From a bacterium (GTDB lineage: Bacteria; SZUA-182; DTGQ01), in contig JBFMGO010000140.1 in the NCBI GenBank assembly GCA_040752695.1, positions 1-12,899 on the forward strand: a DNA stretch of 12,899 bases, in the 5' to 3' direction. A program made the position numbers and the translations under genes. Below, in pieces: positions 490 to 12,899 of the stretch. Under the pieces are notes generated by a model that saw nothing but the letters and a program-made list of their open reading frames with translations, was not told where the DNA came from and ran no database searches. Every line of letters begins with the position of its first letter. The stretch's first letter is position 1.

Positions 490-1016
490 GAGCCTGTCCG
501 CGAACAGGTCACAAAAAAGTTGATAGGGCCGATAATTGTTAGTCAGTGAGAGGACCTTGAAATTTTTGAGGAGATTTTTCCCAAGGTCATGACACCGGAG
601 GGGCAATCACCAGTCCCTTTTTATCAATGCAGGAGTATTTTCCTTCCTTTAACTATCCGTTTTTGAGGTACTGGCTTCATTCCAAGATCCACTATTTTGC
701 TCAGAACTGCCCTCACCACCTTTTTGATATTATGCACTGCGCACACAAGAGAAAATTCCCCCTGTGCCTTCTTGAATCCCCGTAAGTGAAATTGCCGGAA
801 ACCACTATTCTTTATTTGGCCAAAGACAGGCTCAACAATCTGTTTACGCTTTTTGTATATCTGCTTTGATGTTTCCTGTTGCATTTTCTCGATCATTTTC
901 TGTCTGAGTGGTTCTTGATCATCAGTGTTGATGGTTCGAGGCTCCCCTTTTTGGGATTTGCAGCATCTCCTCTGGTAGGGGCACTTATCGCAGTCATCTT
1001 TACTGGCTTGATTCAA
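490..1016 (-). mobile_element. IS1182-family-like insertion sequence remnant (3' part of transposase plus one terminal inverted repeat)
   Basis: A transposase C-terminus lies at 624-1016. GAGCCTGTCCGCGAAC begins at 490 directly after CTAG (486-489), which resembles an IS terminus with its target site. No matching second end was seen. Confidence 0.7.
624..1016 (-). pseudogene. Truncated IS1182-type DDE transposase, C-terminal fragment
   Basis: Contains DCxxCPxxxxC followed by YKKRKQIVEPVFGQIK-x2-GFRQFHLRG-x5-EFSLVCAVHNIKK, typical of the DDE_Tnp_1_6/IS1182 C-terminus. Only 130 aa; the N-terminal part is missing. Confidence 0.85.
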
Positions 1017-1436
1017 GACAAGTCACGGGATCATCCAATTATTCATGTGAATTTTCCCGTATGGAATTGGCTTCAGAAAACCTGCCAGATAGAGGAAGCT
1101 TCCGTATTTCCTTTTTCGATTTATTAGCTTCTCGACAGTGATAAGTTCTCAAAGGAAGCTGACCTTTTGAAATTGGCCAAAGTCCATAGATCGAGATTCC
1201 CTAAAAGCGAATTAAAGCATGAGTCGCATGGGTATTGACTTTGCCTAAATTAAAAAGTCCGCCAATACAAGGACAGGTGTTTTTTGCTATGCCCTTATTT
1301 TTGCCAGTCGGTCTCATTTTTGAGACCTGTTTCAGAACTTTTAACTGTCGAGTTAGCTTTTATCACAAATTTAGTGAACCGGCAGGAGGAGAAAGCCGAA
1401 TAATGGGATGGTCCTTTCCATAAAGCATGAGATAAA

Positions 1437-1465
1437 TATTGCATTCTTTTTCATACTATGCAATA
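1437..1465. promoter_or_regulatory. Inverted repeat, candidate upstream activator site
   Basis: TATTGCAT-N13-ATGCAATA lies about 100-125 bp upstream of the -24 element and is separated from it by an AT-rich tract (~1470-1560). Confidence 0.4.
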
Positions 1466-1558
1466 CAATTCAATATTTGGCTATTTTATTTTTTAATTAA
1501 TTAAGTATAAATATAATAATTTATATTATATAAAAATTAAATAAAAATACATAAAAAA

Positions 1559-1576
1559 TTGGCATGATCTTTGCAT
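1559..1576 (+). promoter_or_regulatory. Candidate sigma-54 (-24/-12) promoter of the RiPP operon
   Basis: TTGGCATGATCTTTGCAT has GG (1561-1562), exactly 10 nt, then GC (1573-1574). This closely matches TGGCAC-N5-TTGC. It lies directly after a very AT-rich tract and upstream of the first gene. Confidence 0.7.
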
Positions 1577-1755
1577 AAATTTTTACTGTATCTTATTAAG
1601 CGATGCTCTGCCTGATCAAACCATTGAAGAGATATTGCTGGTTACTCACTACTTCTAAGGATCCGTACCAGTATTCTTCATTTTTGTCACAATCTATCGA
1701 AACATTCTGTCCTATCCTTGTTGTCTTTGATAAAAAAATAGGAGGAATTGATAAG

Positions 1756-1944
1756 ATGACCAAAGCTCATAGATCAATCTTTCGTGAGAGTGCTCTGCAG
1801 CGCTATATGCAAGGTAAGGGTCAACCAGTGTTACCACGGTTTATCTCCCAGCGCATCTTCATTTGGCTGTGGACCTTGCTTGGACTTCTGTTGGTTAGTG
1901 GGGTTATTGTCTCACTAATGATTATAGGACAGCTTGGGGTATAG
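1756..1944 (+). CDS. Small single-pass membrane protein resembling the N-terminus of bacteriocin-secretion HlyD-type accessory proteins (62 aa)
   Basis: GGAGG at 1741-1745 precedes ATG 1756, which is preferred over the 1603 start. The sequence SIFRESALQRY...VLPRFIS is followed by a hydrophobic helix (IFIWLWTLLGLLLVSGVIVSLMII). The stop lies 3 nt before the transporter ATG. Confidence 0.65.
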   Translation: MTKAHRSIFRESALQRYMQGKGQPVLPRFISQRIFIWLWTLLGLLLVSGVIVSLMIIGQLGV

Positions 1945-1947
1945 AAG

Positions 1948-4323
1948 ATGAGCAATTTCAATGCTACTCAAAATAGCCAGAAAGGAGAAGGGGAAGACCG
2001 GAAATCAGCAAGGATATGGCTGAGTGTTTTCTGCTCTCTGCCTTTTACCTTATGGGCTGCTCTGGCCGCTCTGCTTGTTCATCTACGCGGGCGTCGGGTT
2101 CCTGTCATACTTCAAATGAATGAGGTCGAATGCGGTGCCGCCTGCCTGGCCATGATCCTTAGTTTCTATGGCCGGAAGACGCCTATCTCGGAATGCCGCA
2201 CCTTGTATGGGACTAGCCGTAATGGTCTTACCGCCCAAGTCATTGCTACAGCGGCACGCCATTATGGATTTCGGGTAAAGGGGTTCTCAGTAGAGCTGAG
2301 TAATTTAAAACATATTCCTTTGCCTGCCATCATCCATTGGAACTTTAACCACTTTGTGGTGTTGGAACGATGGGTGCCCAGGAAAGCGGTGATTGTCGAT
2401 CCTGCTGCCGGACGCCGCCAATTGACAGCGGATGAATTTGACAGGGGCTTCACCGGAGTGGTATTGGTCATCGAGCCTGGTGTTGACTTTGAACAGTGCC
2501 GCTCATCAGCCCGACGGCCCATGTGGCGTACCTATTTGATGTCAATGCTGCGTACACCAGGTGCAATTGGCCTGATGACCCAGATTCTGACTGCCTCCCT
2601 ATGCTTGCAGGTTCTTGGGCTAGCCCTGCCAGCCCTCACCAAGGTACTTATGGACAAGGTTCTCCCATCCCACATTACCCATATTATGACGATCTTGGGG
2701 ATAGGGATGCTTATTTTGGCCCTGACCCAGGCGGTAACCAGTTATCTACGGTCTCTCCTGTTAATCTGTCTTCAGGCGCGTCTTGATTCACACATCATGC
2801 TTGGCTTCTTTGAGCATGTGCTCGGCCTCCCTTTCCAGTTTTTCCAGCAGCGAAGCAGCGGAGACCTGCTGATGCGGCTTAGCAGTAATATGACCATCCG
2901 TGAAATGCTCACCAGCCACACGGTATCTGTTATCCTGGATGGCGCTTTCGTGTCCGCGTATCTGGTCATTTTGCTCACTCAGGCACCCCTCTTTGGTTTG
3001 ATCGTCCTTGGGATAAGCCTGCTTCAGGTCGCACTGTTAGCGGGTACGGCCCGGCACATGCATGGCCTGACTCAGCGCAACCTCTCGGCCCAGGCAGAAT
3101 CACAGAGTTTTTTGGTCGAAACACTGACGGGGATGGTAACTTTGAAAGCAGCCGGCGGGGAAGATCGCGCTTTCGACCATTGGTCGAATCTGTTTATGAA
3201 CCAGTTGAATGTCTCTCTTCACCAAAGCCACTTTTCGGCGTTGATTGAAACAGCCCTAGTGACCCTGCGCACCCTTAGCCCTCTCCTGCTGCTATGGATT
3301 GGGGCAGGTTGGGTCCTGAATGGCAGCATGAGCCTTGGCACAATGCTGGCCCTGAACGCACTGGCCGCATCCACCATGTCGCCCCTAGCTACTCTGGTGG
3401 CAATGGGACAGCAATTACAGACAATCGGTGCTCACCTTGATCGGTTGGCTGACGTGATCGAGGCCGAGCCGGAGCAGGATGTGCAGGCAGTTCAAAAAGC
3501 GCCGCTGATCAGTGGCCGGATTGAAGTGAGAAACATGAGCTTTCGCTATGACCCCAATGGCCCCTGGGTGTTGCGCAACATCTCCTTCACGGTCGAGGCG
3601 GGACAGAAAATCGCTCTTGTCGGCCGCACCGGGTCGGGCAAGAGTACTCTGGCCATGCTCCTTCTGGGCCTGTATACGCCAAATGAAGGAGAGATTCTCT
3701 ATGATGGCATCTGCCTGCAACATCTGAACTACCGCGATCTCCGGAACCAGTTTGGAGTAGTGCTGCAAGAGCCATTCCTGTTCAGCGACTCCATTCGACG
3801 GAACATCGCCTTCAACAACCCCGGCCTCTCGTTTGAGCAAGTGACAGAGGCTGCTCAACTTGCTGCAATTCATGATGAGATTATGCAGATGCCCATGCAT
3901 TACGAGACAAAGATTGCGGAGGGAGGCAGCGGGCTGTCAGGCGGACAAAGACAGCGACTTTCCATTGCCCGGGCTCTGGCACACAAGCCTGCCATACTCC
4001 TGCTGGATGAGGCCACCAGCCACCTGGATACCGTCACCGAGCATCAGGTCGATAATAACCTGAGCCAGTTCGCCTGTACGCGGATCGTGATTGCGCACCG
4101 GCTGAGTACGATCCGCAACGCAGATATGATTCTGGTCCTCGATGAGGGAACCATAGTCGAGCAGGGCAGGCATGAGGAACTGGTGGCAGAAGGAGGACAT
4201 TACGCCGCTCTGGTGAATAGCCAGTTAGAAGATGAGGCCAGTGGCAGGGTCCCCGCTTCGAATGTTGAACAATCTGGTGCGTATAGTGTATTTTTCTCCC
4301 GTATTGGCGCTGAAAGGGGGTGA
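1948..4323 (+). CDS. lanT: Peptidase C39 domain-containing ABC transporter (PCAT, LanT-type)
   Basis: C39 motifs QMNEVECGAACL and HWNFNHFVV...VDP; multi-helix membrane domain; Walker A GRTGSGKST; signature LSGGQRQ; Walker B LLLDEATS; H-loop IAHRLST. Confidence 0.96.
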   Translation: MSNFNATQNSQKGEGEDRKSARIWLSVFCSLPFTLWAALAALLVHLRGRRVPVILQMNEVECGAACLAMILSFYGRKTPISECRTLYGTSRNGLTAQVIATAARHYGFRVKGFSVELSNLKHIPLPAIIHWNFNHFVVLERWVPRKAVIVDPAAGRRQLTADEFDRGFTGVVLVIEPGVDFEQCRSSARRPMWRTYLMSMLRTPGAIGLMTQILTASLCLQVLGLALPALTKVLMDKVLPSHITHIMTILGIGMLILALTQAVTSYLRSLLLICLQARLDSHIMLGFFEHVLGLPFQFFQQRSSGDLLMRLSSNMTIREMLTSHTVSVILDGAFVSAYLVILLTQAPLFGLIVLGISLLQVALLAGTARHMHGLTQRNLSAQAESQSFLVETLTGMVTLKAAGGEDRAFDHWSNLFMNQLNVSLHQSHFSALIETALVTLRTLSPLLLLWIGAGWVLNGSMSLGTMLALNALAASTMSPLATLVAMGQQLQTIGAHLDRLADVIEAEPEQDVQAVQKAPLISGRIEVRNMSFRYDPNGPWVLRNISFTVEAGQKIALVGRTGSGKSTLAMLLLGLYTPNEGEILYDGICLQHLNYRDLRNQFGVVLQEPFLFSDSIRRNIAFNNPGLSFEQVTEAAQLAAIHDEIMQMPMHYETKIAEGGSGLSGGQRQRLSIARALAHKPAILLLDEATSHLDTVTEHQVDNNLSQFACTRIVIAHRLSTIRNADMILVLDEGTIVEQGRHEELVAEGGHYAALVNSQLEDEASGRVPASNVEQSGAYSVFFSRIGAERG

Positions 4324-4465
4324 CGATGAAGGAACTAATGCGCTCTCAAGCCGGTTAAGAACAGCGGCAGGTCTATTGTGGCCTATTCGGCCATTGTAAC
4401 TAACTTTTATACAAAGGATGCTGTTCACAGGGGAAAAACTGTGAATAAGTAGTAAGGAGACAAAC

Positions 4466-4654
4466 ATGAAAGACGATAACCGTAGTATGCAAATGTCAGA
4501 CAAAAACAATAAACTTAAGCTGACTGAATTAGACTCGGATGATCTTGGTATTGTCAGTGGTGCAAGACCGCGGCAGTATCCATGCAGTTGCTGCTGCATG
4601 GGTGACAGCAATGTCTATTTCGATTCGGCTTACACTCCTTCTACGGCCTCATAA
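4466..4654 (+). CDS. RiPP precursor 1: double-glycine-type leader with Cys-rich core; probable radical SAM substrate (TIGR04149-like)
   Basis: RBS AAGGAG at 4454-4459. The leader ends ELDSDDLGIVSGA and the predicted core is RPRQYPCSCCCMGDSNVYFDSAYTPSTAS. It lies between the PCAT and the rSAM gene and is followed by a hairpin. Confidence 0.88.
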   Translation: MKDDNRSMQMSDKNNKLKLTELDSDDLGIVSGARPRQYPCSCCCMGDSNVYFDSAYTPSTAS

Positions 4655-4669
4655 AATGTGAACAATCAT

Positions 4670-4702
4670 ACCCTGGACATGTGTTTTTCACATGTCCAGG
4701 GT
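4670..4702 (+). terminator. Stem-loop after precursor 1 (attenuator or mRNA stabiliser)
   Basis: ACCCTGGACATGTG-TTTTT-CACATGTCCAGGGT: perfect 14-bp stem with a 5-nt loop and only a weak U tail. Confidence 0.75.
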
Positions 4703-4739
4703 GTTTCCTATCAGTGGAGGAGAGAGGAGAAGATAAGAT

Positions 4740-6269
4740 ATGTACAGTGCAATTGCCTTTAAGACCAAGAACAAGAGCACGTATTTCTTCGATATCAACA
4801 AGAACAGCCTCGTTCTCTGTCATCCGATCCTGTTCGAGATTGTACGCATGGGATCGCGAATGGCCAAGAGTGGAGAGATCCTCAGCGGCCCCTCCTGGAC
4901 AGATTCTCTTTCTCAAGGGGAGTTCGGTTCGGTACCTAGGGATATTCTCGCTTTCTATGTGGAGAAGTATAGGCTATTGCAGAAAAATGGTTACTTTAGA
5001 GAGGTCGACAAAAGCAGTAAAACTTACCGCATTTCGGCATATACTGTTCGTGATTCGCTTGCAAATACGCATCAAATCGTCTTCGAGGTAACGGGAAGGT
5101 GTAATCTATGCTGCGAATACTGTGGATACGGCGATCTTTATTCTCAGGTTGATAAAAAGAGGAGTACACGTAACCTCGACACAAAATCTGCCATGCGCCT
5201 CATTGATTACGTTTTAAAACTCGTTGTCTCTCCATACAATCACTCGGCTGATAAAAAACTTCATATCTCGTTCTACGGTGGAGAGCCTCTGTTGCGCATC
5301 GGATTCATAAAAGAAGTAGTAGACTATGTGCGATCGTGTATGGGACACGGGATTTCGCTTACGCTTGGAATGACGACGAACGGGACGTATCTTCGCAAGT
5401 ATTCGGATTATCTGGTAAAGAATAACTTTAATCTTCTCGTAAGCCTGGATGGAAATGAAAAGAACAACTCATACCGCCTGTTTCACAATGGCAAACCTTC
5501 CTTTCAGGTTGTTCTCCAAAACATCAAATATCTTGCCCGCACCTACCCACGATATTTCGAGAAGAGAGTGTCTTTCAATTCGGTGTTCAATGGCCGGAGC
5601 ACGTTGTCTGATGTCTGTGAATTCTTCAAATCCGAATTCAACATGAAGCCAAAGATAGCGGAGATTAACCTACATGGAATCTTGCAAAGCAAAAGAGCGA
5701 TCTTCGAAAAGATGTACAAAAGTGTCGTGGATGCTTTGACTGAAGAGGCTGAAGGTGAGCGCTATGAAGAGGAGATGCCTTCTGTATTTCCAAGGACAAA
5801 CACCGCTATCAGATTCGTTCACCGGTGTAATAGCGCTATGTTTGAGGACTATGACGACCTCCTCGATCCGGTCGATAATAGATCGAGCTATATCACGGGA
5901 ACGTGCCTGCCGTTTGCGAAAAAGATCTTCCTCTCGGCGGGCAGGAACATCTTGCCATGTGAAAAAGTATCGCAGGAATTCGTTCTGGGAAAGGTTGAGG
6001 ATTCGGGAGAGGTAGCTATCGACTTCGAAAGTATCGCTGCACTATATAATGGATATTACAGGAAAATAGAGGAGTTATGCAGCAATTGTTACAATCTCCT
6101 CTGTCCCCAATGCCTGTTTCGAATGAATATCCAGGATGAACGTGTTGGCTGTCAAGATTTTCTGGCCCTTGACGGGGCCGCAAAGCGGCTTGCATCTATT
6201 GTGGGTTATTTCGAGGATCGTGGTCCAGCCTTATACAACAAGTTCATAAAGGAGGTTTGGATTGAATAG
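4740..6269 (+). CDS. Radical SAM/SPASM peptide maturase (resembles the GG-Bacteroidales family TIGR04148)
   Basis: FEVTGRCNLCCEYCGYG (CxxxCxxC), FYGGEPL, TTNG and SLDG motifs. C-terminal Cys set: GTCLPF...LPCEKV...CSNCYNLLCPQC...C. An N-terminal extension of ~110 aa may be an RRE. Confidence 0.92.
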   Translation: MYSAIAFKTKNKSTYFFDINKNSLVLCHPILFEIVRMGSRMAKSGEILSGPSWTDSLSQGEFGSVPRDILAFYVEKYRLLQKNGYFREVDKSSKTYRISAYTVRDSLANTHQIVFEVTGRCNLCCEYCGYGDLYSQVDKKRSTRNLDTKSAMRLIDYVLKLVVSPYNHSADKKLHISFYGGEPLLRIGFIKEVVDYVRSCMGHGISLTLGMTTNGTYLRKYSDYLVKNNFNLLVSLDGNEKNNSYRLFHNGKPSFQVVLQNIKYLARTYPRYFEKRVSFNSVFNGRSTLSDVCEFFKSEFNMKPKIAEINLHGILQSKRAIFEKMYKSVVDALTEEAEGERYEEEMPSVFPRTNTAIRFVHRCNSAMFEDYDDLLDPVDNRSSYITGTCLPFAKKIFLSAGRNILPCEKVSQEFVLGKVEDSGEVAIDFESIAALYNGYYRKIEELCSNCYNLLCPQCLFRMNIQDERVGCQDFLALDGAAKRLASIVGYFEDRGPALYNKFIKEVWIE

Positions 6270-7530
6270 CGTGTCTGGTTGGATTGTCATTGATCCTTTT
6301 GTCCATATCGCAGTAAAGGGCGACTCATGTCTCCTTTATAATCCGCTCAATGGCAAGATACTAGAGTATGGAGATTCGCTGGTCGTCGAACTGGTCCGCG
6401 ATTTAACTTCTCCTGAGAATCTTCTTATCAAAAGGATTTCTTTAAAGGATCGTGCGCTCCCTTTATCAGTATTCGGCTTTATCGAAGATCTGCGCTCTGC
6501 GTTTATGGGAGATTTTATCGAGGCAGACGCCTCGGCGGTTCGTCCCATTCAGTTCCCTCCCGTCGTTCAGGTAACGAGAGCTGTCGAATACATCAGGAGC
6601 GATGAGAACCGTTCGGTCGGTGAGTTTGCTGTAAAGTATTTGAATAGACTTTTAGTTTATGTAAACAGCGATTGCAATTTCGACTGTGATCTCTGCAAGT
6701 CTGCTTATAAACAAATCAATTGGTGTACGAAGGCAAACCAGGGGACACTTGATATCGCGGTTCTGAAATCAGCAGTCGAGAGCATTAATTGCGCTCGCCT
6801 GCGATCGATCAGTATACTCGGTGGAGACATCCTTTCTTATCCCCATATCGAGGAGCTATCCAGATTCCTTGGGAAGAAGCCCACCCATAAAATATATTAT
6901 TTACACTGCGAGAATCTCATCCGCAGCGATAAGTGTTTGCGCACCCTCGAATTGCAGGGTTCAAGGCTTTGCGTCCTTGCCACCCCGCAGGTGACAAGAC
7001 CGGATCTATCCAGGGCAAGCCAATCGCTTAGAGATCTGCAGATAGATCACGAGTGGCTTATTGCGGTCCGTAGTGATAAAGAGTTCCTTGAGATAAGGAG
7101 CGTGTTCGAGTCCCTGAAGATTACGAATTATAGGATAATGCCCTGGTTCAATGGTCTTAATATCGAATTCTTCGAGGAGATGGTCTTCATCGATGTGGAT
7201 GATCTTGCTCGCTCGGGCGTTTCCATGAAGGAAATATTTGCCCACCAACGATTGAACAAGAGGGATTTTGGCAGGCTGATTATTCTCTCAAATAGTGACG
7301 TGCATGGCAATGTGAACCATCACAGGCTAGCTCGACTTGGGGAGCAGACCATAGATGATGCGTTGCTCGAGGAAATGCGATCGGGCCAGAGCTGGTTTAG
7401 GGTAAGAGGAAAACTTGTTCCTTGTCGCGACTGCCTCTTCGAGGCACTCTGCCCGCCACCATCGAACTATGAGATCGCGATCGGGAGAAATAACTTATGC
7501 CATATATGGGATAATCACCAACCTCCTTAA
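6262..7530 (+). CDS. Pseudo-radical-SAM/SPASM partner protein (TIGR04150-like)
   Basis: TTG start with AAGGAGG RBS (6249-6255), overlapping the upstream gene by 8 nt. Motifs: N-terminal LLYNPLNG; CNFDCDLC-x9-C; degenerate GGD in place of GGEP; C-terminal CRDCLFEALCPPPSNYEIAIGRNNLCHI. Confidence 0.85.
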   Translation: MNSVSGWIVIDPFVHIAVKGDSCLLYNPLNGKILEYGDSLVVELVRDLTSPENLLIKRISLKDRALPLSVFGFIEDLRSAFMGDFIEADASAVRPIQFPPVVQVTRAVEYIRSDENRSVGEFAVKYLNRLLVYVNSDCNFDCDLCKSAYKQINWCTKANQGTLDIAVLKSAVESINCARLRSISILGGDILSYPHIEELSRFLGKKPTHKIYYLHCENLIRSDKCLRTLELQGSRLCVLATPQVTRPDLSRASQSLRDLQIDHEWLIAVRSDKEFLEIRSVFESLKITNYRIMPWFNGLNIEFFEEMVFIDVDDLARSGVSMKEIFAHQRLNKRDFGRLIILSNSDVHGNVNHHRLARLGEQTIDDALLEEMRSGQSWFRVRGKLVPCRDCLFEALCPPPSNYEIAIGRNNLCHIWDNHQPP

Positions 7531-7762
7531 GCATTTTGCGATCGACGTATTCTATGAACTTGCCTCGACTTTCAGTTGAGACGACGATGGGTTTCATGCT
7601 TCAGATAGCTTTCGGATTTTTCGCAGACAGCAAGATGCAGATACTACCACAATTCTAAATGCAGCGATTTTCAGATGCTCTGGGTTACCCAATTCCTGGA
7701 ATTTTTAGACTATTTTGGGGGATCAATGAAGATGATTATGAGTGTGTGATAAATACGAGGGA

Positions 7763-7802
7763 CTGCCTTGAAGCTCTTTGCCGGCAAAGAGCTTCAAGGC
7801 AG
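7763..7802. repeat. Perfect 40-bp palindrome upstream of lanA
   Basis: CTGCCTTGAAGCTCTTTGCC is followed immediately by its exact reverse complement GGCAAAGAGCTTCAAGGCAG. The ORF track shows the same peptide CLEALCRQRASRQ on both strands here. Confidence 0.95.
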
Positions 7803-7859
7803 GTCCAGGATGGCCTGTCAGGCCACCGGAAGTCTAAAGAAAGAAAGGAGGTGAACGAA

Positions 7860-8084
7860 ATGTCGAAGGTAGATATCATTCGTGCCTGGAAAGACGAGGA
7901 GTATCGGTTGAGTCTGAGTGATGCCGAGCAGGCCATGTTACCGGCCAACCCGGCAGGCATCATCGAACTGACAGGAACGGAGTTGGATATTGTTGGAGGG
8001 GCAAGACCTAACTTATCAGCAGCTACGACATGCTATCATGGTTTTTGTTCTAATTTTTGTAGTGCTGCTCCACCATGGTGTTAA
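7860..8084 (+). CDS. lanA: RiPP precursor 2: mersacidin/lichenicidin-family class II lanthipeptide precursor (74 aa)
   Basis: RBS AAGGAGGTG at 7845-7853 precedes ATG 7860. The leader DIIRAWKDEEYRLSLS...LPANPAGIIEL...IVGGA is characteristic. The core RPNLSAATTCYHGFCSNFCSAAPPWC has 4 Cys and 5 Ser/Thr. It is adjacent to lanM. Confidence 0.95.
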   Translation: MSKVDIIRAWKDEEYRLSLSDAEQAMLPANPAGIIELTGTELDIVGGARPNLSAATTCYHGFCSNFCSAAPPWC

Positions 8085-8129
8085 ATGAAATACGTTCTAC
8101 ACGACGCGTCGGCATATATCCTTTCAGAG

Positions 8130-8154
8130 GGGGTGGATCATTTTGATCCACCCC
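8130..8154 (+). terminator. Stem-loop between lanA and lanM
   Basis: GGGGTGGATCA-TTT-TGATCCACCCC: 11-bp perfect stem with no U tract, so more likely a stabiliser or attenuator than a true terminator. Confidence 0.65.
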
Positions 8155-8310
8155 ATAAAGGGGTAAATACTAGGTCCTGCCTTGCTCTTTTGCCTGCAGG
8201 AGCAGCGGGAGGGCCCACGGTGTCCTTATCCGGTCCTCAGCGGCTCACACCATGTATGGGTAATATCAACAAGTATAAATACACCTCACCTGCATATAAG
8301 GGATTGATAT

Positions 8311-11300
8311 ATGGATAGTATAAGCAAGAGATCTTTTCAGGCTCCTGAGTGGTACCAGGCTTTCACCTTAAAGGAACGTAGAGCTTCACTGGTTGCTGCT
8401 CAGCATACAGAGCCCAAGGTTAAAATAGATGCTGATCTGGCAGAGCGAAAAATGCGTCGCTGGCGGTCACAACCGCCATTTACGACAGGTTCCTTCTTTA
8501 CCCGGCGATTGGAAATGGAAACTCTTACCGAGGACGAATTCCTCCATTTTCTCGGCGAGCCCATCGAAGCTGTCCGCGACCGTTTTCCGGCCATCCCGGG
8601 ATGGCTTGCTAAGTTGACTCAGGCATTTTCCCACCCACCGACATCAGAGCCGCTGCCACTTCCGGAGGAACTCCGGAAGCAGCCTGAAGCAGGGTTCCTG
8701 GCTGCAATAGCGCCGCTCATCCACCAGGGCCGTGACTTCCTACGTCAGGGCATACAAAGCATCTCCCAGACACGATACGATCTGCCCTTCGATCCCGGCA
8801 CAATCGAAGATATCCTCTTGGCAAATCTACCGTATCAATTGATCATGATGATAAGCCGTACTATGGTTCTGGAATTAAATATAGCCCGTCTCCAAGGGCT
8901 TTTACCTGGAGATACTGCTGAGGAACGCTTTTGCAGTTTCCTGGAGCGGATATGCCAGCCCGACCTTGTGCTCGCCATCTTCCATGAGTATCCTGTCCTG
9001 GCGCGTCAACTTGTTGAACATATCGATATTTGGGCCAATCTTAGCCTCGAATTTCTCCGTCACCTGTGCTCCGATTGGGATGAGATCAGGACCACCTTCA
9101 GCCCAGGGAGTGATCCGGGTGTGCTTATACAGGTTAAGGGTCATGCGGGCGACAGTCATCGGGGCGGGCGATCGGTATTAATAACCACATTCAGATCCGG
9201 CCTTAAGATAGTCTATAGACCGAAATCGCTGGCTGTGGACGTGCACTTTCAGGAGCTATTAGCCTGGCTCAATGAGCATGGTGATCATCCGCCATTCCGG
9301 GCGATCAAAATCCTCAATTGTGGTCTCTATGGCTGGGTCGAATTCGTGGCTGCCGAAAGCTGCACCTCTCAAGAAGAGATCAAGCGTTTCTATATACGTC
9401 AGGGTAGTTATCTGGCGCTGCTCTATGCACTGAAGGCAACCGATTTTCACTTTGAGAACCTCATAGCTGCGGGAGAGCATCCTGTTTTGGTCGATCTGGA
9501 GACGCTCTTTCATTCATCTATCCATAAAATTGATCCAAGACAATCGAATCAACTTGCTGGCAATACACTCTATCACTCCGTTTTGAGCATTGGCTTGCTG
9601 CCTCAGCGTACCTGGGCTAATGAAGAATCTGAAGGTATTGATTTAAGCGGTCTGGGTGGTACAGGCGGCCAGATCACGCCCTTTGGTGTCCCGCAATGGG
9701 AAAACGCGGGTAAAGATGAAATGCGGCTGATCCGAAAGCGGATACCTCTCTCAGGGCAGCAGAATCGACCGACCTTGAATGGTACCGAGGTCTGTGTTCA
9801 AGATTATACAGAGGAAATCATAGCTGGATTCACCAATATGTATCATTTGCTGCTGAGGCACTATCAGGAACTCTTATCGGATAACGGTCCCTTGACCCAC
9901 TTTGCAGAGGACGAAGTGCGTGTCATTCTTCGCTCCACACAGACCTATTATAGGTTACTTTATGCAAGTTTTCACCCCGATGTCCTGAGAAATGCTCTGG
10001 ACCGTGACCGCCTGTTTGACCGGCTCTGGGTCAGCGTCGAGCAGATTCCCAATTTAGCTAGAGTGATTCGGGCAGAGTGTGAAGACCTGCGGAAAGGCGA
10101 TATTCCATTCTTCAGTACACGGCCTGGTTCGTGTGACCTGTGGAGCAGCGCAGGTGAACGCATCGCTGACTTCTTTGACGAACCAGGTCTGAGCCTGGCC
10201 CGACGCAGGCTGCAAGGACTGAGTGAGGACAATCTTAGCCAGCAGCTCTGGTTTATCCGTGCCTCATTGGCTACGCTATCCATATCTACAATATCCATGA
10301 ATGCGAGTCGCGTACAGCGGCCCAATTATCATCCCACTGAATCGCAGTCTCCGGCAGACCGCGATCGGCTCCTGACTGCAGCCCAAGCCATTGGCGATCA
10401 GCTGGAGAGGCTGGCTCTTCGTGGCGAGCATGACGTTTCCTGGATTGGCTTGACGATAAGCAAGGACCGGTATTGGGCCCTCCTGCCTGCAGGAGTAGAC
10501 CTTTATGATGGCCTGGCGGGAATTGCTTTCTTCCTGGCGTATTTGGGGAAGATCACCCGGCAGGCCCGGTATACGGAACTTGCCCAGGTCACTCTGGCGA
10601 CCTTACGAAACCAGGTGACGAACAATCAGTCATTCATCACCTCAATTGGTGGCTATAGTGGCTGGGGCGGGATCATCTACACCCTCACTCATCTGGGTTC
10701 ACTCTGGGATCAGCCCTCATTGCTCGATGAGGCTGAAGCCATAGTAAAATTGCTGCCGCCGCTCATCGAAAAGGACGAGAGCCTGGATGTAATCGCTGGT
10801 GCGGCTGGATGCATTGCCAGCTTAGCCTGCCTGCTTCGCTGCAGGCCATCCCCAGATACGCTGGCAGCAGCTATCCAGTGTGGTGAGCGGCTCCTGGCCT
10901 GTGCCCAATCCATGGAGCAGGGCAGGGCCTGGACCATCACTATGTGGACAAAACCGCTGGCTGGATTCTCGCATGGCGCTGGTGGCATAGCCTGGGCACT
11001 GCTGGAGTTAGCCTCGCTGACGGGTGAGAAGCGCTTCAGGGCAATGGCGCTTGAGGCTATTGCTTACGAACGCAGCCTCTTTGACCCCAAGGAAGGGAAT
11101 TGGCAAGACGTGCGCGAGATGGAAATAGCAAACCAGGCAGCGAATGGCCATCAAGCCAGCTTTATGTCCGCCTGGTGCCACGGTGCGCCCGGCATAGGCA
11201 TGGCTCGCCTGAGTTCTCTCAAGTACATGGATGATCCTGCGATCCGTGAGGAAATCGATATAGCCCTTAAGACCACTCTGTCAAAAGGATTTGGCTTTAA

Positions 11301-11583
11301 TCACTCGTTGTGTCACGGCGATTTAGGCAATCTTGAATTGCTGCTGCTGGCCAATGAAACTCTGGAAGATGGCGAACAGTGGCGCGACCAGGCATACCGC
11401 ATCGCTGCCATTATCCTTGAGAGCATTAACCGGGATGGATGGATTTGCGGGGTCCCCTTAAGGGTTGAAGTGCCCGGGCTTATGACTGGCATAGCGGGCA
11501 TTGGCTACGAACTGCTGCGCCTGGCAGAGCCAGCCCGCGTACCGTCAGTGCTCGTGCTTGCACCGCCGCTTAAACGTTCATGA
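8311..11583 (+). CDS. lanM: Class II lanthipeptide synthetase LanM
   Basis: Dehydratase (DUF4135-type) motifs EYPVLAR, GDSHRGG, KIVYRPK, DFHFENLIA, VDLETLF and RVILRST. LanC cyclase motifs LYDGLAG, GFSHGAGG, WCHGAPG and LCHGDLG. Length 1090 aa. Confidence 0.98.
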   Translation: MDSISKRSFQAPEWYQAFTLKERRASLVAAQHTEPKVKIDADLAERKMRRWRSQPPFTTGSFFTRRLEMETLTEDEFLHFLGEPIEAVRDRFPAIPGWLAKLTQAFSHPPTSEPLPLPEELRKQPEAGFLAAIAPLIHQGRDFLRQGIQSISQTRYDLPFDPGTIEDILLANLPYQLIMMISRTMVLELNIARLQGLLPGDTAEERFCSFLERICQPDLVLAIFHEYPVLARQLVEHIDIWANLSLEFLRHLCSDWDEIRTTFSPGSDPGVLIQVKGHAGDSHRGGRSVLITTFRSGLKIVYRPKSLAVDVHFQELLAWLNEHGDHPPFRAIKILNCGLYGWVEFVAAESCTSQEEIKRFYIRQGSYLALLYALKATDFHFENLIAAGEHPVLVDLETLFHSSIHKIDPRQSNQLAGNTLYHSVLSIGLLPQRTWANEESEGIDLSGLGGTGGQITPFGVPQWENAGKDEMRLIRKRIPLSGQQNRPTLNGTEVCVQDYTEEIIAGFTNMYHLLLRHYQELLSDNGPLTHFAEDEVRVILRSTQTYYRLLYASFHPDVLRNALDRDRLFDRLWVSVEQIPNLARVIRAECEDLRKGDIPFFSTRPGSCDLWSSAGERIADFFDEPGLSLARRRLQGLSEDNLSQQLWFIRASLATLSISTISMNASRVQRPNYHPTESQSPADRDRLLTAAQAIGDQLERLALRGEHDVSWIGLTISKDRYWALLPAGVDLYDGLAGIAFFLAYLGKITRQARYTELAQVTLATLRNQVTNNQSFITSIGGYSGWGGIIYTLTHLGSLWDQPSLLDEAEAIVKLLPPLIEKDESLDVIAGAAGCIASLACLLRCRPSPDTLAAAIQCGERLLACAQSMEQGRAWTITMWTKPLAGFSHGAGGIAWALLELASLTGEKRFRAMALEAIAYERSLFDPKEGNWQDVREMEIANQAANGHQASFMSAWCHGAPGIGMARLSSLKYMDDPAIREEIDIALKTTLSKGFGFNHSLCHGDLGNLELLLLANETLEDGEQWRDQAYRIAAIILESINRDGWICGVPLRVEVPGLMTGIAGIGYELLRLAEPARVPSVLVLAPPLKRS

Positions 11584-11710: not shown

Positions 11711-11748
11711 TAACCACAACGCAAAAATGTAACCACAACGCAAAAATG
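11711..11748 (+). repeat. Perfect 19-bp tandem duplication
   Basis: TAACCACAACGCAAAAATG occurs twice, at 11711-11729 and 11730-11748. Confidence 0.92.
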
Positions 11749-11892
11749 AACGTTCGTTTTTATTGCCCTTCTAAATAGATGAAACCGATTGACTAACTTC
11801 TAACTACAGTGAAAAAATAATTCTTTTTTGACCTATACTTTTGCACTTTTTAGCAACTGATTGGTGTACCTATAGTTTCGTAATGTCTACCC

Positions 11893-11963
11893 GTCATTTT
11901 CGCGAAGGCTTAGAATCCAGGTTTTTCAAGAGCTTCTGGATTCTAAGCCTTCGCCGGAATGAC
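11893..11963. repeat. REP-like long inverted repeat of the GTCATT...GAATCCAG / CTGGATTC...AATGAC type
   Basis: 28-bp arms at 11893-11920 and 11936-11963, 25 of 28 positions complementary, with a 15-nt spacer. Confidence 0.8.
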
Positions 11964-12005
11964 AAAAAGTGCAAAACTATAGTTTTGACGTTTTTTCAAT
12001 CACCT

Positions 12006-12652: not shown

Positions 12653-12899
12653 GGTAGTGATAAACAAGTAATGCTGGAGGATTTTTCCGGATAGAGTGAG
12701 GAAAGTAGACGACAATTCATTAGAGTTACTTCTAAGCGATAAAACTTCTGAAAAGGAGCCAATAATGAATTTTCCTTCCTGTGGATCTGTAAACATAAAG
12801 AAGAATGGTCATATTCATAATGGGAAACAGAATTATCAATGCAGAGATTGTGGCAGAGAATCTGTAGCAGATAAGCAGAAAAAAGACATCACTCAGGCA
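12653..12899 (+). mobile_element. IS1-family element, left end (runs off the window)
   Basis: GGTAGTGATAAACAAG at 12653 resembles IS1-family GGT-starting termini and is followed by an InsA-like ORF. Confidence 0.7.
12765..12899 (+). CDS. insA: IS1-family transposase N-terminal zinc-ribbon (partial, probably degenerate)
   Basis: RBS AAGGAG at 12753-12758. Translation MNFPSCGSVNIKKNGHIHNGKQNYQCRDCGRESV... matches CPxCxS-x3-KNG-x4-GKQxYxCxxCGR, except that the first Cys is Phe. Confidence 0.8.
   Translation, partial: MNFPSCGSVNIKKNGHIHNGKQNYQCRDCGRESVADKQKKDITQA

Follow-up and report, generated by a model that had tools for sequence, protein, structure and literature searches.

The window, which is the whole of the 12,899-nucleotide contig C140, carries on its plus strand a run of a short ORF, a PCAT/LanT exporter, a first precursor (precursor 1), a radical SAM/SPASM maturase (rSAM), a TIGR04150 partner protein ("pseudo-rSAM"), LanA and LanM. 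The first-pass annotation had described a co-oriented lanT/precursor 1/rSAM/pseudo-rSAM/lanA/lanM run, and this was borne out: one exporter accompanies two precursors, and a 3.4 kb cassette (precursor 1, rSAM and partner) is nested between lanT and lanA. The enzyme genes are free of stops and frameshifts, and the products of the rSAM, partner, LanA and LanM genes each score above curated family cut-offs in profile searches. At each of its ends, the contig matches the ends of further contigs in this assembly at 99-100%. IS remnants are found on either side of the run. The contig has no dedicated protease or immunity gene, and the cluster has no outer-membrane channel gene.

The lanA gene (7860..8084, plus strand, RBS AAGGAGGTG) encodes a mersacidin/lichenicidin-family precursor (TIGR03898, 65.7 bits, cut-off 23.5). 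In brief, it has a 48-aa leader and a 26-aa core with 3 Ser, 2 Thr and 4 Cys, 2803.18 Da unmodified. We found 216 relatives of this LanA, and their very diverse cores suggest tolerant LanMs. The LanM class II lanthionine synthetase (8311..11583, plus strand) scores 1058 bits against TIGR03897 (cut-off 304), its nearest relatives stand at 66%, and its alignment to LicM2 (6ST5) has a value of 5e-149. The dehydratase motifs and the cyclase residues His888, Cys956, Cys1001 and His1002 are present. LanM motifs, a LanA with leader and core, and a C39 exporter are together consistent with a class II lanthipeptide cluster. Like the class II clusters of the mersacidin/lichenicidin family (LicM2, MrsM), the locus has an intact LanM, a LanA and a C39 exporter, in the PCAT-LanA-LanM order that is also found, free of any cassette, at locus L246. 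Unlike them, it has the rSAM cassette in the lanT-lanA gap and a single LanA.

The rSAM gene (4740..6269, plus strand) encodes a TIGR04148 maturase (412.6 bits, cut-off 300) with an N-terminal RRE-like domain. Cys121, Cys125 and Cys128 (CxxxCxxC), GGEP and seven Cys of the SPASM region are invariant among 91 sequences; compared with 39 relatives, one residue is missing between Cys450 and Cys455, and the branch is long (1.15) in the tree. The structure model (pLDDT 91.5) has CteB (5WGG/5WHY) as nearest structure, at an identity of just 16-17%, and the nearest other families are CcpM, lachnocin, RumMC and PapB. By analogy with these, we infer radical Cys-S to carbon bonds in the product of precursor 1. 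A literature search in which subscription papers were mostly outside coverage gave no chemistry for any TIGR04148 enzyme. The annotation had cited the trio as described for Bacteroidales; the cassette here is not specifically of that type, as the named top rSAM matches are Aminicenantes.

The partner gene (6262..7530, plus strand; TIGR04150, 345.3 bits, cut-off 250) starts with TTG and has its first 8 nt in common with the end of the rSAM gene. Its product has an intact CX3CX2CX9C motif, which is kept in 71 of 122 relatives and lost in 51, and is modelled with an RRE, a barrel and a SPASM-like fold (pLDDT 92.7). The modelled rSAM-partner complex scored 0.89, against 0.00 for the best of three controls; the mark for such scores, which 116 of 157 solved pairs but 2 of 215 mismatched ones attain, is roughly valid here, where our own alignments were used. 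At least 96% of contacts recur between runs, the partner pLDDT is at least 89 and both N-terminal domains take part in the interface. The two proteins are thus predicted to bind as a heterodimer.

Precursor 1 (4466..4654, plus strand, RBS AGGAG) is a 62-aa product called from its own-profile score and leader analysis. It consists of a 33-aa leader and a 29-aa core of 3208.28 Da unmodified, with Cys7, Cys9, Cys10 and Cys11 as an N-terminal CxCCC cluster, 5 Ser and 2 Thr. Of the five families named by the annotation, four were recovered by their models and one, TIGR04149, was not, precursor 1 giving no match at E <= 0.1; this model is narrow, for of 7 precursors taken from genuine cassettes only 1 passed its cut-off. 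On a profile built from 86 precursors of related cassettes, precursor 1 scored 19.4 bits, beat 1000 of 1000 shuffles and, out of 84,833 short frames in the genome, ranked first; the runner-up (19.3 bits) is Cys-free. In wider respects it also looks like a cassette precursor, being upstream, of double-glycine type, with a KLKL-type front and a CxC core. Its Cys precede most of the Ser/Thr, an arrangement common to all 86 CxC-bearing cassette precursors. An atlas lookup placed precursor 1 with Bacteroidota clusters (0.91), which we treat as a lead only.

The leader of precursor 1 is a mosaic of a cassette-type front half and an acidic, LanA-type back half. The front motif [KN][LIF][KN][LI] is present in precursor 1 and in 54 of the 86 cassette precursors, and is missing from the resident LanA and from all 119 LanA relatives. 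Conversely, precursor 1 lacks the N-terminal [IV][IV]RxWxD motif found in 119 of 119 LanA relatives, and gives no TIGR03898 match. Positions -13 to -1 (net charge -4) favour the LanA type over the cassette type by +13.4 bits log-odds, a score that exceeds those of 39 of 101 LanA relatives and is reached by none of 99 cassette leaders. Among the latter, only that of L032 is positive (+1.4); it adjoins the same PCAT type, and neither LanM nor LanA was found in its genome. The result was unchanged when one rule was used for both families and 27 precursors were added, the 12 of 119 LanA relatives that have no site under the rule being left out.

The predicted cut site, GA|RP, is identical in the leaders of precursor 1 and the resident LanA, and both have hydrophobic residues at -12, -7 and -4 before it. 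Around the predicted cut 9 of 15 residues are identical, including the RP beyond it; the resident LanA has as many as 9 residues in common with only 2 of its 107 relatives. A candidate gene conversion between the two precursors at the DNA level (25 of 45 nt) was not convincing.

The exporter gene (1948..4323, plus strand) encodes Pfam Peptidase_C39, ABC_membrane and ABC_tran domains. No NCBIfam model scored above cut-off, the best being TIGR03796 with 679 of 853 bits. Cys62, His135, Asp151, Walker A/B, signature and H-loop are intact. The closest relatives of known context (57%, L009 and L032) adjoin cassettes rather than LanMs, suggesting that the exporter may have arrived with the cassette; exporters of LanM loci reach 45% at best, in a comparison that did not extend to the loci of the 60-66% LanM relatives. 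A quick tree leaves the origin undecided, the relevant grouping being unstarred. Elsewhere the same PCAT type adjoins cassettes without LanM, and in the rSAM tree (59 of 123 rows) such cassettes do not fall into a single group (3 changes).

The short ORF (1756..1944, plus strand) is a 62-aa remnant of an approximately 200-aa accessory protein, comprising the N-terminal part and a membrane helix. The full-length protein precedes the same PCAT type elsewhere and belongs to no Pfam or NCBIfam family. The remnant was recognised by tblastn (L009, 42%, 4e-11; L032, 35%, 7e-9), and the remainder of these two proteins had no match within the window. An atlas lookup for the short ORF gave a lead only.

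Upstream of the run is a host-native element (1384..1654, plus strand) with three paralogous copies, on C115, C27 and C187, at 70-75% identity. It consists of the inverted box ATTGCA-N15-TGCAAT (1438-1464), an AT-rich tract and a site at 1560-1575 that fits the sigma-54 consensus pattern and is presumably a promoter. The pattern has no other match in the window and occurs 42 times in the genome, against 5.7 expected; the site scores 22.4 bits by matrix, the next best in the window 9.4. RpoN is encoded in the genome. We suggest that a host-type sigma-54 promoter heads the whole run, which would then be co-transcribed. Three intergenic structures, all on the plus strand and without U-tracts, lie within the run: a strong hairpin 3' of precursor 1 (4669..4703, z -5.2, 0 of 200 shuffles), a perfect 20-bp inverted repeat upstream of lanA (7761..7804, z -5.5) and a hairpin 3' of lanA (8117..8165, z -3.0, 1 of 200 shuffles). 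An Rfam search gave no match.

Codon use is alike within modules (PCAT and LanM, p 0.29; rSAM and partner, p 0.36) and differs across them at p 0.0002-0.054, although among 438 pairs of adjacent genes such differences rank only at the 72nd-94th percentile. These two codon-use groups back the proposal that two modules of different origin have merged.

The annotation had also proposed a synteny search for rSAM, pseudo-rSAM and LanM. A conserved hybrid system is not supported, no second case having been found in the loci examined. Cassette loci were taken from the rSAM alignment as the best 80 of 593 on genome contigs and the best 80 of 572 on metagenome contigs. The partner was present in 144 of these 160 and LanM or LanA adjoined none, with at least 3 kb available downstream in 87 and on both sides in 65. 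In a sample of the class Aminicenantia, 19 of 201 genomes encode TIGR04150 and none LanM; 40 regions from this class (most of 48 matches, some repeating earlier loci) contained no full LanM. Combined, LanM adjoins 0 of 200 cassette loci, in a sample rather than a census. LanM was found in 13 of 401 genomes (14 places) in the phylum of G043, in 3 of 386 (4 places) in that of G1006, in 0 of 251 in that of G041 and in none of the 19 other genomes of the host phylum. None of 20 LanM places, two cyanobacterial plasmids included and three regions shorter than 9 kb, adjoins a cassette. Two further phyla, sampled with 401 and 61 genomes, each had a single genome with TIGR04150 above cut-off, in each case the one on which the search was centred. 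The genome searches covered sampled phyla other than Cyanobacteria, Chloroflexota and Myxococcota, in which close LanMs and PCATs occur. The partner protein alone, used as query against genome contigs, gave no relative, and no viral contig with LanM was found. A weak test, comparing the top 119 rSAM with the top 119 LanM relatives, gave no apparent common contig big enough for both; by the same test the LanA and LanM lists have three apparent common contigs. The combination is a single case, with no sign of selection holding the modules together.

Based on these observations, we lean slightly towards a reading in which two separate maturation lines have promoter and exporter in common. In the order of assembly and division of labour that we infer, the cassette would have entered a class II lanthipeptide cluster at the lanT-lanA gap, and the entire run would be read from the host-type sigma-54 promoter. 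LanM would dehydrate Ser/Thr of the LanA core and form at most four (methyl)lanthionine rings. In the other line, the rSAM and the TIGR04150 protein would heterodimerise via their N-terminal domains, the partner helping to hold the leader while the TIGR04148 subunit performs the radical chemistry. The CxCCC Cys of precursor 1 would be linked to carbons of downstream residues by thioethers of the sacti or ranthi type, each with a loss of 2 Da. The single PCAT would recognise the common acidic helix, cut both leaders at the putative GA|RP site and export both peptides. According to the available text of PMC10885120, PCATs recognise their substrates by hydrophobic residues at -4, -7 and -12 and can serve diverse cores. 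On this reading, precursor 1 has a LanA-like second leader half because it must fit the PCAT, not because LanM modifies precursor 1; with this leader having come to look like that of the resident LanA, a single exporter probably serves two peptides cyclised in different ways. The 9 of 15 identity around the predicted cut appears to exceed what export alone obviously needs, and so counts against this two-line reading.

A neutral or decaying mobile patchwork, in which a chance landing left one or both lines silent or unexported, is unlikely. It would explain the IS remnants, the absence from all 19 other host-phylum genomes (10 of them at least 90% complete), the truncated accessory gene, and the long branch and deletion of the rSAM. 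It is at odds with the intact catalytic motifs in all four large genes, the strong RBSs and the host-native promoter element in front, and a LanA-matching leader would be hard to gain without time under selection.

Rather improbable, in our judgement, is cross-modification, in which the chimeric leader of precursor 1 would be read by the rSAM pair at its front and by LanM at its acidic back, giving one 29-residue core with radical thioethers plus dehydrations or lanthionines. The annotation had left the choice between co-exported and doubly modified peptides open. Co-export gains from the common GA|RP and hydrophobic positions, and double modification gains, only indirectly, from the acidic LanA-like end of the mosaic leader. 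The 4 Cys, 5 Ser and 2 Thr of the core and the presumably tolerant LanMs also fit the latter. In the accessible parts of the respective papers, acidic positions close to the end of the leader are important for MrsM (PMC9127955) and DprM (PMC12537861), and engineered chimeric leaders function (PMC10373908). On the other hand, the DprM study (PMC12537861) reports that both leader ends are required, and precursor 1 lacks the front motif of the LanA relatives; the resident LanA, for its part, lacks that of the cassette. The acidic-leaning L032 leader adjoins the same PCAT type without LanM, the Cys come before most Ser/Thr, like those of ordinary CxC cassette precursors, and the arrangement did not recur.

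We give little credence to a mixed-class two-component agent, in which the two lines would run as in the preferred reading and both exported peptides act jointly. Co-orientation, one promoter-like site, a hairpin after each precursor and identical Arg-Pro N-termini after the predicted cut are compatible with it; the pair is not conserved, the cores are unlike each other, and the LanA core lacks the mersacidin-type TxTxEC motif, as given in the available part of bioRxiv 2020.03.13.990614. An assembly chimera of two unrelated clusters is very improbable: this is one contig of a metagenome-type assembly, but neither junction carries a repeat, the common GA|RP leader ends flank the second junction, and PCAT and LanM, on opposite sides, are alike in codon use.

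The locus is a compact, fully clonable test of RiPP pathway merging, in which one leader has apparently been adapted to an exporter of foreign origin, and perhaps to a foreign synthetase as well, paralleling the chimeric leaders of engineers. Cross-modification, if true, would mean a new RiPP class at its birth, hitherto obtained only by engineering, with an ordinary lanthipeptide co-exported. Merger aside, the predicted heterodimer gives a testable answer on the role of the widespread pseudo-rSAM, from a cassette which many gut Bacteroidales and Aminicenantes carry and the chemistry of which we did not find in print. The weight of these points is that of a single case known from sequence.

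The cassette resembles the GG-Bacteroidales rSAM cassette in having TIGR04148 and TIGR04150 above cut-off, in gene order and in the upstream CxC double-glycine-type precursor. That cassette was described in silico, its pseudo-rSAM being given no function in the available text of PMC4573289 and PMC10352776. The present one differs in its approximately 40% identity to nearest relatives, in a precursor outside TIGR04149, in an acidic LanA-type GA|RP leader end where the other is basic (K/R-GG), in another PCAT lineage (approximately 30% to Bacteroidota ones) and in the LanA and LanM downstream. In the thuricin system, according to the accessible text of PMC12093266, TrnC and TrnD bind via RRE domains, only the radical cluster of TrnC is essential, and the two peptides are of one class with enzymes common to both. 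By analogy, the rSAM and partner are two adjacent RRE-rSAM-SPASM proteins with a predicted N-terminal-domain complex, and one radical cluster may be dispensable, given that 51 of 122 TIGR04150 relatives have lost the motif; the complex here comes from a model, and the likeness is one of architecture that does not imply homology.

The annotation knew of no characterised example of such a combination. This needs qualifying, as PMC10028609, in its available part, describes a natural LanM (OspM), a radical SAM epimerase (OspD) and an arginase (OspR) acting on one precursor in the single landornamide cluster. There one precursor is epimerised, whereas here there are two precursor families and an rSAM pair of probable cross-linking type. 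A LanM with a TIGR04148 cassette was not found in print, in a search with subscription papers mostly outside coverage; Table S11/Figure S9 of PMC7268733, a listing of radical SAM genes within lanthipeptide clusters, could hold an example. In the accessible text of PMC10352776, the table of a survey of 1,136 genomes has no rSAM + LanM class. The same text describes Bacteroidales rSAM, pseudo-rSAM and LanC-like clusters (BGC3-5), in which a cassette of the same kind adjoins a lanthionine-cyclase-fold gene; unlike here, they have no dehydratase, and their LanC-like proteins are missing key residues. A LanC-fold gene without a dehydratase also lies 7.5 kb from the cassette in one Aminicenantia region.

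The gene run lies on the forward strand and comprises a 62-aa ORF (1756-1944), the exporter PCAT (LanT; 1948-4323), precursor 1 (4466-4654), a radical SAM protein, rSAM (4740-6269), its partner (6262-7530), the lanthipeptide precursor LanA (7860-8084) and the synthetase LanM (8311-11583). An HMM search placed rSAM, partner, LanA and LanM above the curated cut-offs of TIGR04148, TIGR04150, TIGR03898 and TIGR03897, as expected in the first-pass annotation. The TIGR04149 match expected for precursor 1 did not hold up, since no family, TIGR04149 included, matched this peptide. The gene arrangement is real, intact, unusual and so far unique; literature searches found no cluster joining LanM with TIGR04148/04150, and the annotation knew of no characterized example. 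The available parts of PMC4573289 and PMC10352776 note the cassette in silico only and give no function for the partner; the latter describes cassettes with LanC-like clusters that have no dehydratase, and its available part lists no rSAM and LanM class. The accessible text of bioRxiv 2020.03.13.990614 refers in general terms to radical SAM genes found in lanthipeptide clusters, and that of PMC8939145 just names TIGR04149.

The enzymes look alive. LanM aligns along its length with LicM2 (5e-149) and keeps its dehydratase and cyclase motifs, and PCAT keeps the Cys/His/Asp triad and ABC motifs, all called with consensus patterns. The rSAM retains CxxxCxxC, GGEP and seven C-terminal cysteines, which are invariant across 91 sequences; its closest relatives are only ~40% identical, the named ones being Aminicenantes. 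Its predicted structure has an RRE-like N-terminus, and its nearest structure by both sequence and fold is the thioether-forming enzyme CteB, at 16-17% identity. Predicted structure and fold comparison give the partner the same architecture, with GGD at the position of the rSAM GGE. The accessory gene is shortened to 62 aa in the window, and export past the inner membrane may therefore be limited. That the run is a neutral or decaying patchwork is, in our view, unlikely.

The rSAM and partner probably form a heterodimer. The complex model supports binding, with a score of 0.89 (best control, 0.00); the mark for this score, roughly valid (own alignments used), is reached by 116 of 157 solved pairs and 2 of 215 mismatched pairs. 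The runs have at least 96% of contacts in common, the partner is modeled with a pLDDT of 89 or more, and the interface includes both N-terminal domains. Structure comparisons found no close solved complex, and the model could pass by likeness. In thuricin CD, TrnC and TrnD bind via RRE domains and the TrnC radical cluster alone is essential (PMC12093266, available part). An essential cluster in only one of the two subunits fits a partner family that has lost CX3CX2CX9C in 51 of 122 relatives; the motif is kept in 71 and intact here.

Judged by its sequence, precursor 1 is a real precursor with a mosaic leader, cassette-type at the front and LanA-type at the end. On a profile of 86 precursors gathered upstream of related rSAM genes it scores 19.4 bits, beats 1000/1000 shuffles and ranks first of the genome's 84,833 short frames. 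A Cys-free short ORF on contig C18 (near 15540, reverse strand) scores 19.3 bits, which may be chance. The front motif of precursor 1 is common to 54/86 cassette precursors and is found neither in 119 LanA relatives nor in the resident LanA; the N-terminal motif carried by all 119 is missing from precursor 1. Its last 13 leader residues favor LanA-type over cassette-type by 13.4 bits, a score that tops 39/101 LanA relatives and that 0/99 cassette leaders reach (smaller set: +14.5 bits, 0/72). Both resident precursors have Leu, Leu and Val at -12, -7 and -4 before the predicted cut GA|RP, positions read by PCATs according to the available part of PMC10885120. Around this cut 9/15 residues are common to the two. 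The best agreement of precursor 1 is 8 residues among 107 LanA relatives and 6 among 104 cassette precursors; for the resident LanA, 2/107 relatives come up to 9. The pattern G[GA]A?RP occurs in 3/119 LanA relatives and 0/86 cassette precursors. Four peptides with TIGR03898 leaders (P0260, P0262, P0281 and P0313) have CxC-rich cores resembling cassette cores.

On balance, we lean towards two maturation lines that share a promoter and an exporter, the leader of precursor 1 having been re-fitted to the exporter. In three loci representing two independent cases (L009/L085; L032), a cassette adjoins the same PCAT type (57%) and a ~200-aa accessory gene, in convergent orientation. LanM is absent from these loci, and neither LanM nor LanA was found in the two host genomes searched. 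The L032 precursor has the sole positive leader-end score among 99 cassette leaders, though at +1.4 it is small. Acidic leader ends can therefore accompany this PCAT type where LanM is missing, which favors fitting to the exporter. Processing of precursor 1 by both the rSAM pair and LanM is rather improbable. Acidic residues near the leader end are used in LanM recognition (PMC9127955 and PMC12537861, available parts), but the L032 leader has such an end beside this PCAT without LanM, the case in PMC12537861 needs an N-terminal element as well, and precursor 1 lacks the LanA N-terminal motif. Hybrid chemistry on one peptide is the less likely reading. In landornamide, LanM and an rSAM epimerase work on a single precursor (PMC10028609, available part), whereas the window has two precursors of different kind; chimeric leaders are described as an engineering method in the accessible text of PMC10373908. 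That the two exported peptides act as one two-component agent we regard as quite improbable.

Cassette and LanM modules occur mostly in different lineages. LanM lies beside 0/160 cassette loci (best 80 of 593 and best 80 of 572; 87/160 have at least 3 kb downstream) and 0/40 Aminicenantia cassette regions (some duplicates), and the cassette lies beside 0/20 LanM places. The synteny check proposed earlier thus gave no recurrence of rSAM, partner and LanM in the sampled loci, with Cyanobacteria, Chloroflexota and Myxococcota genomes outside its scope. One class has TIGR04150 in 19/201 genomes and LanM in 0/201; partner, LanM and a close PCAT are absent from 19/19 other genomes of the phylum. Large Aminicenantia genomes (regions L201-L240, class of genome G043) encode as many as five TIGR04148/04150 cassettes apiece; the cores vary widely, and most cassettes have no PCAT in their vicinity (present in 8/40 regions). 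In locus L255 (12473-16222; genome G579, contig C13), a 649-aa LanC-fold protein that lacks a dehydratase domain faces four near-identical double-glycine precursors rich in Cys and Thr; genomes G043, G044 and G045 encode similar proteins of ~685 aa.

GC content is 0.54 for PCAT and 0.53 for LanM, and 0.45 and 0.47 for rSAM and partner. Codon use is alike within each pair and differs across pairs (p 0.0002-0.054), though these differences rank only at the 72nd-94th percentile among adjacent genes. Together with the PCAT-LanA-LanM order present without a cassette in locus L246, this suggests that the cassette was inserted between lanT and lanA. Against this, PCAT's closest context-known relatives adjoin cassettes (grouping unstarred in the tree), so the exporter may instead have come with the cassette. 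A putative sigma-54-type site (1560-1575), the sole match to the pattern in the window, heads the run; the genome encodes RpoN and has 42 such sites (5.7 expected). The site is part of an element of 270 bp that has three paralogues elsewhere in the genome, so the acquired cluster is predicted to be now under a host promoter. Copies lie at 1384-1654 of the window and on contigs C115 (16460-16726), C27 (13811-14025) and C187 (5194-5416), with a weaker one on C109 (1910-2056). The family has an inverted box, an AT-rich tract and the sigma-54-type site, with 80 nt conserved downstream; on C27 and C187 the GG at -24 is degenerate. Behind the C115 copy come an 849-aa protein and what is presumably an exosortase/EPS cluster. 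Hairpins lie 3' of both precursor genes and upstream of lanA, with no U-tract on the forward strand.

The ~200-aa accessory protein (L009 5317-5934; L032 5746-6378) is a short membrane-anchored protein of no Pfam/NCBIfam family that precedes this PCAT type. The shortened ORF is in frame with PCAT, with one TAG stop and one codon between them (1944-1948), and the first 50 residues of PCAT have no match in relatives. A frameshifted scrap on contig C128 (15860-15923, reverse strand) resembles the 62-aa ORF and may be chance.

The assembly is 6.05 Mb and 96.6% complete, and the window is its entire 12,899-bp contig C140. The ends of C140 match other contig ends of the same assembly at 99-100%, which places the contig in this genome. 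An assembly chimera is highly improbable. The run is bordered on both sides by IS remnants, an IS1182-family transposase remnant (624-1016, reverse strand) and the start of an IS1-like element (12696-12899, forward strand). A 19-nt tandem duplication (11711-11748) lies before a REP/MITE-like palindrome (11833-11982; hairpin z -8.2), where matches to 38 other contigs begin.
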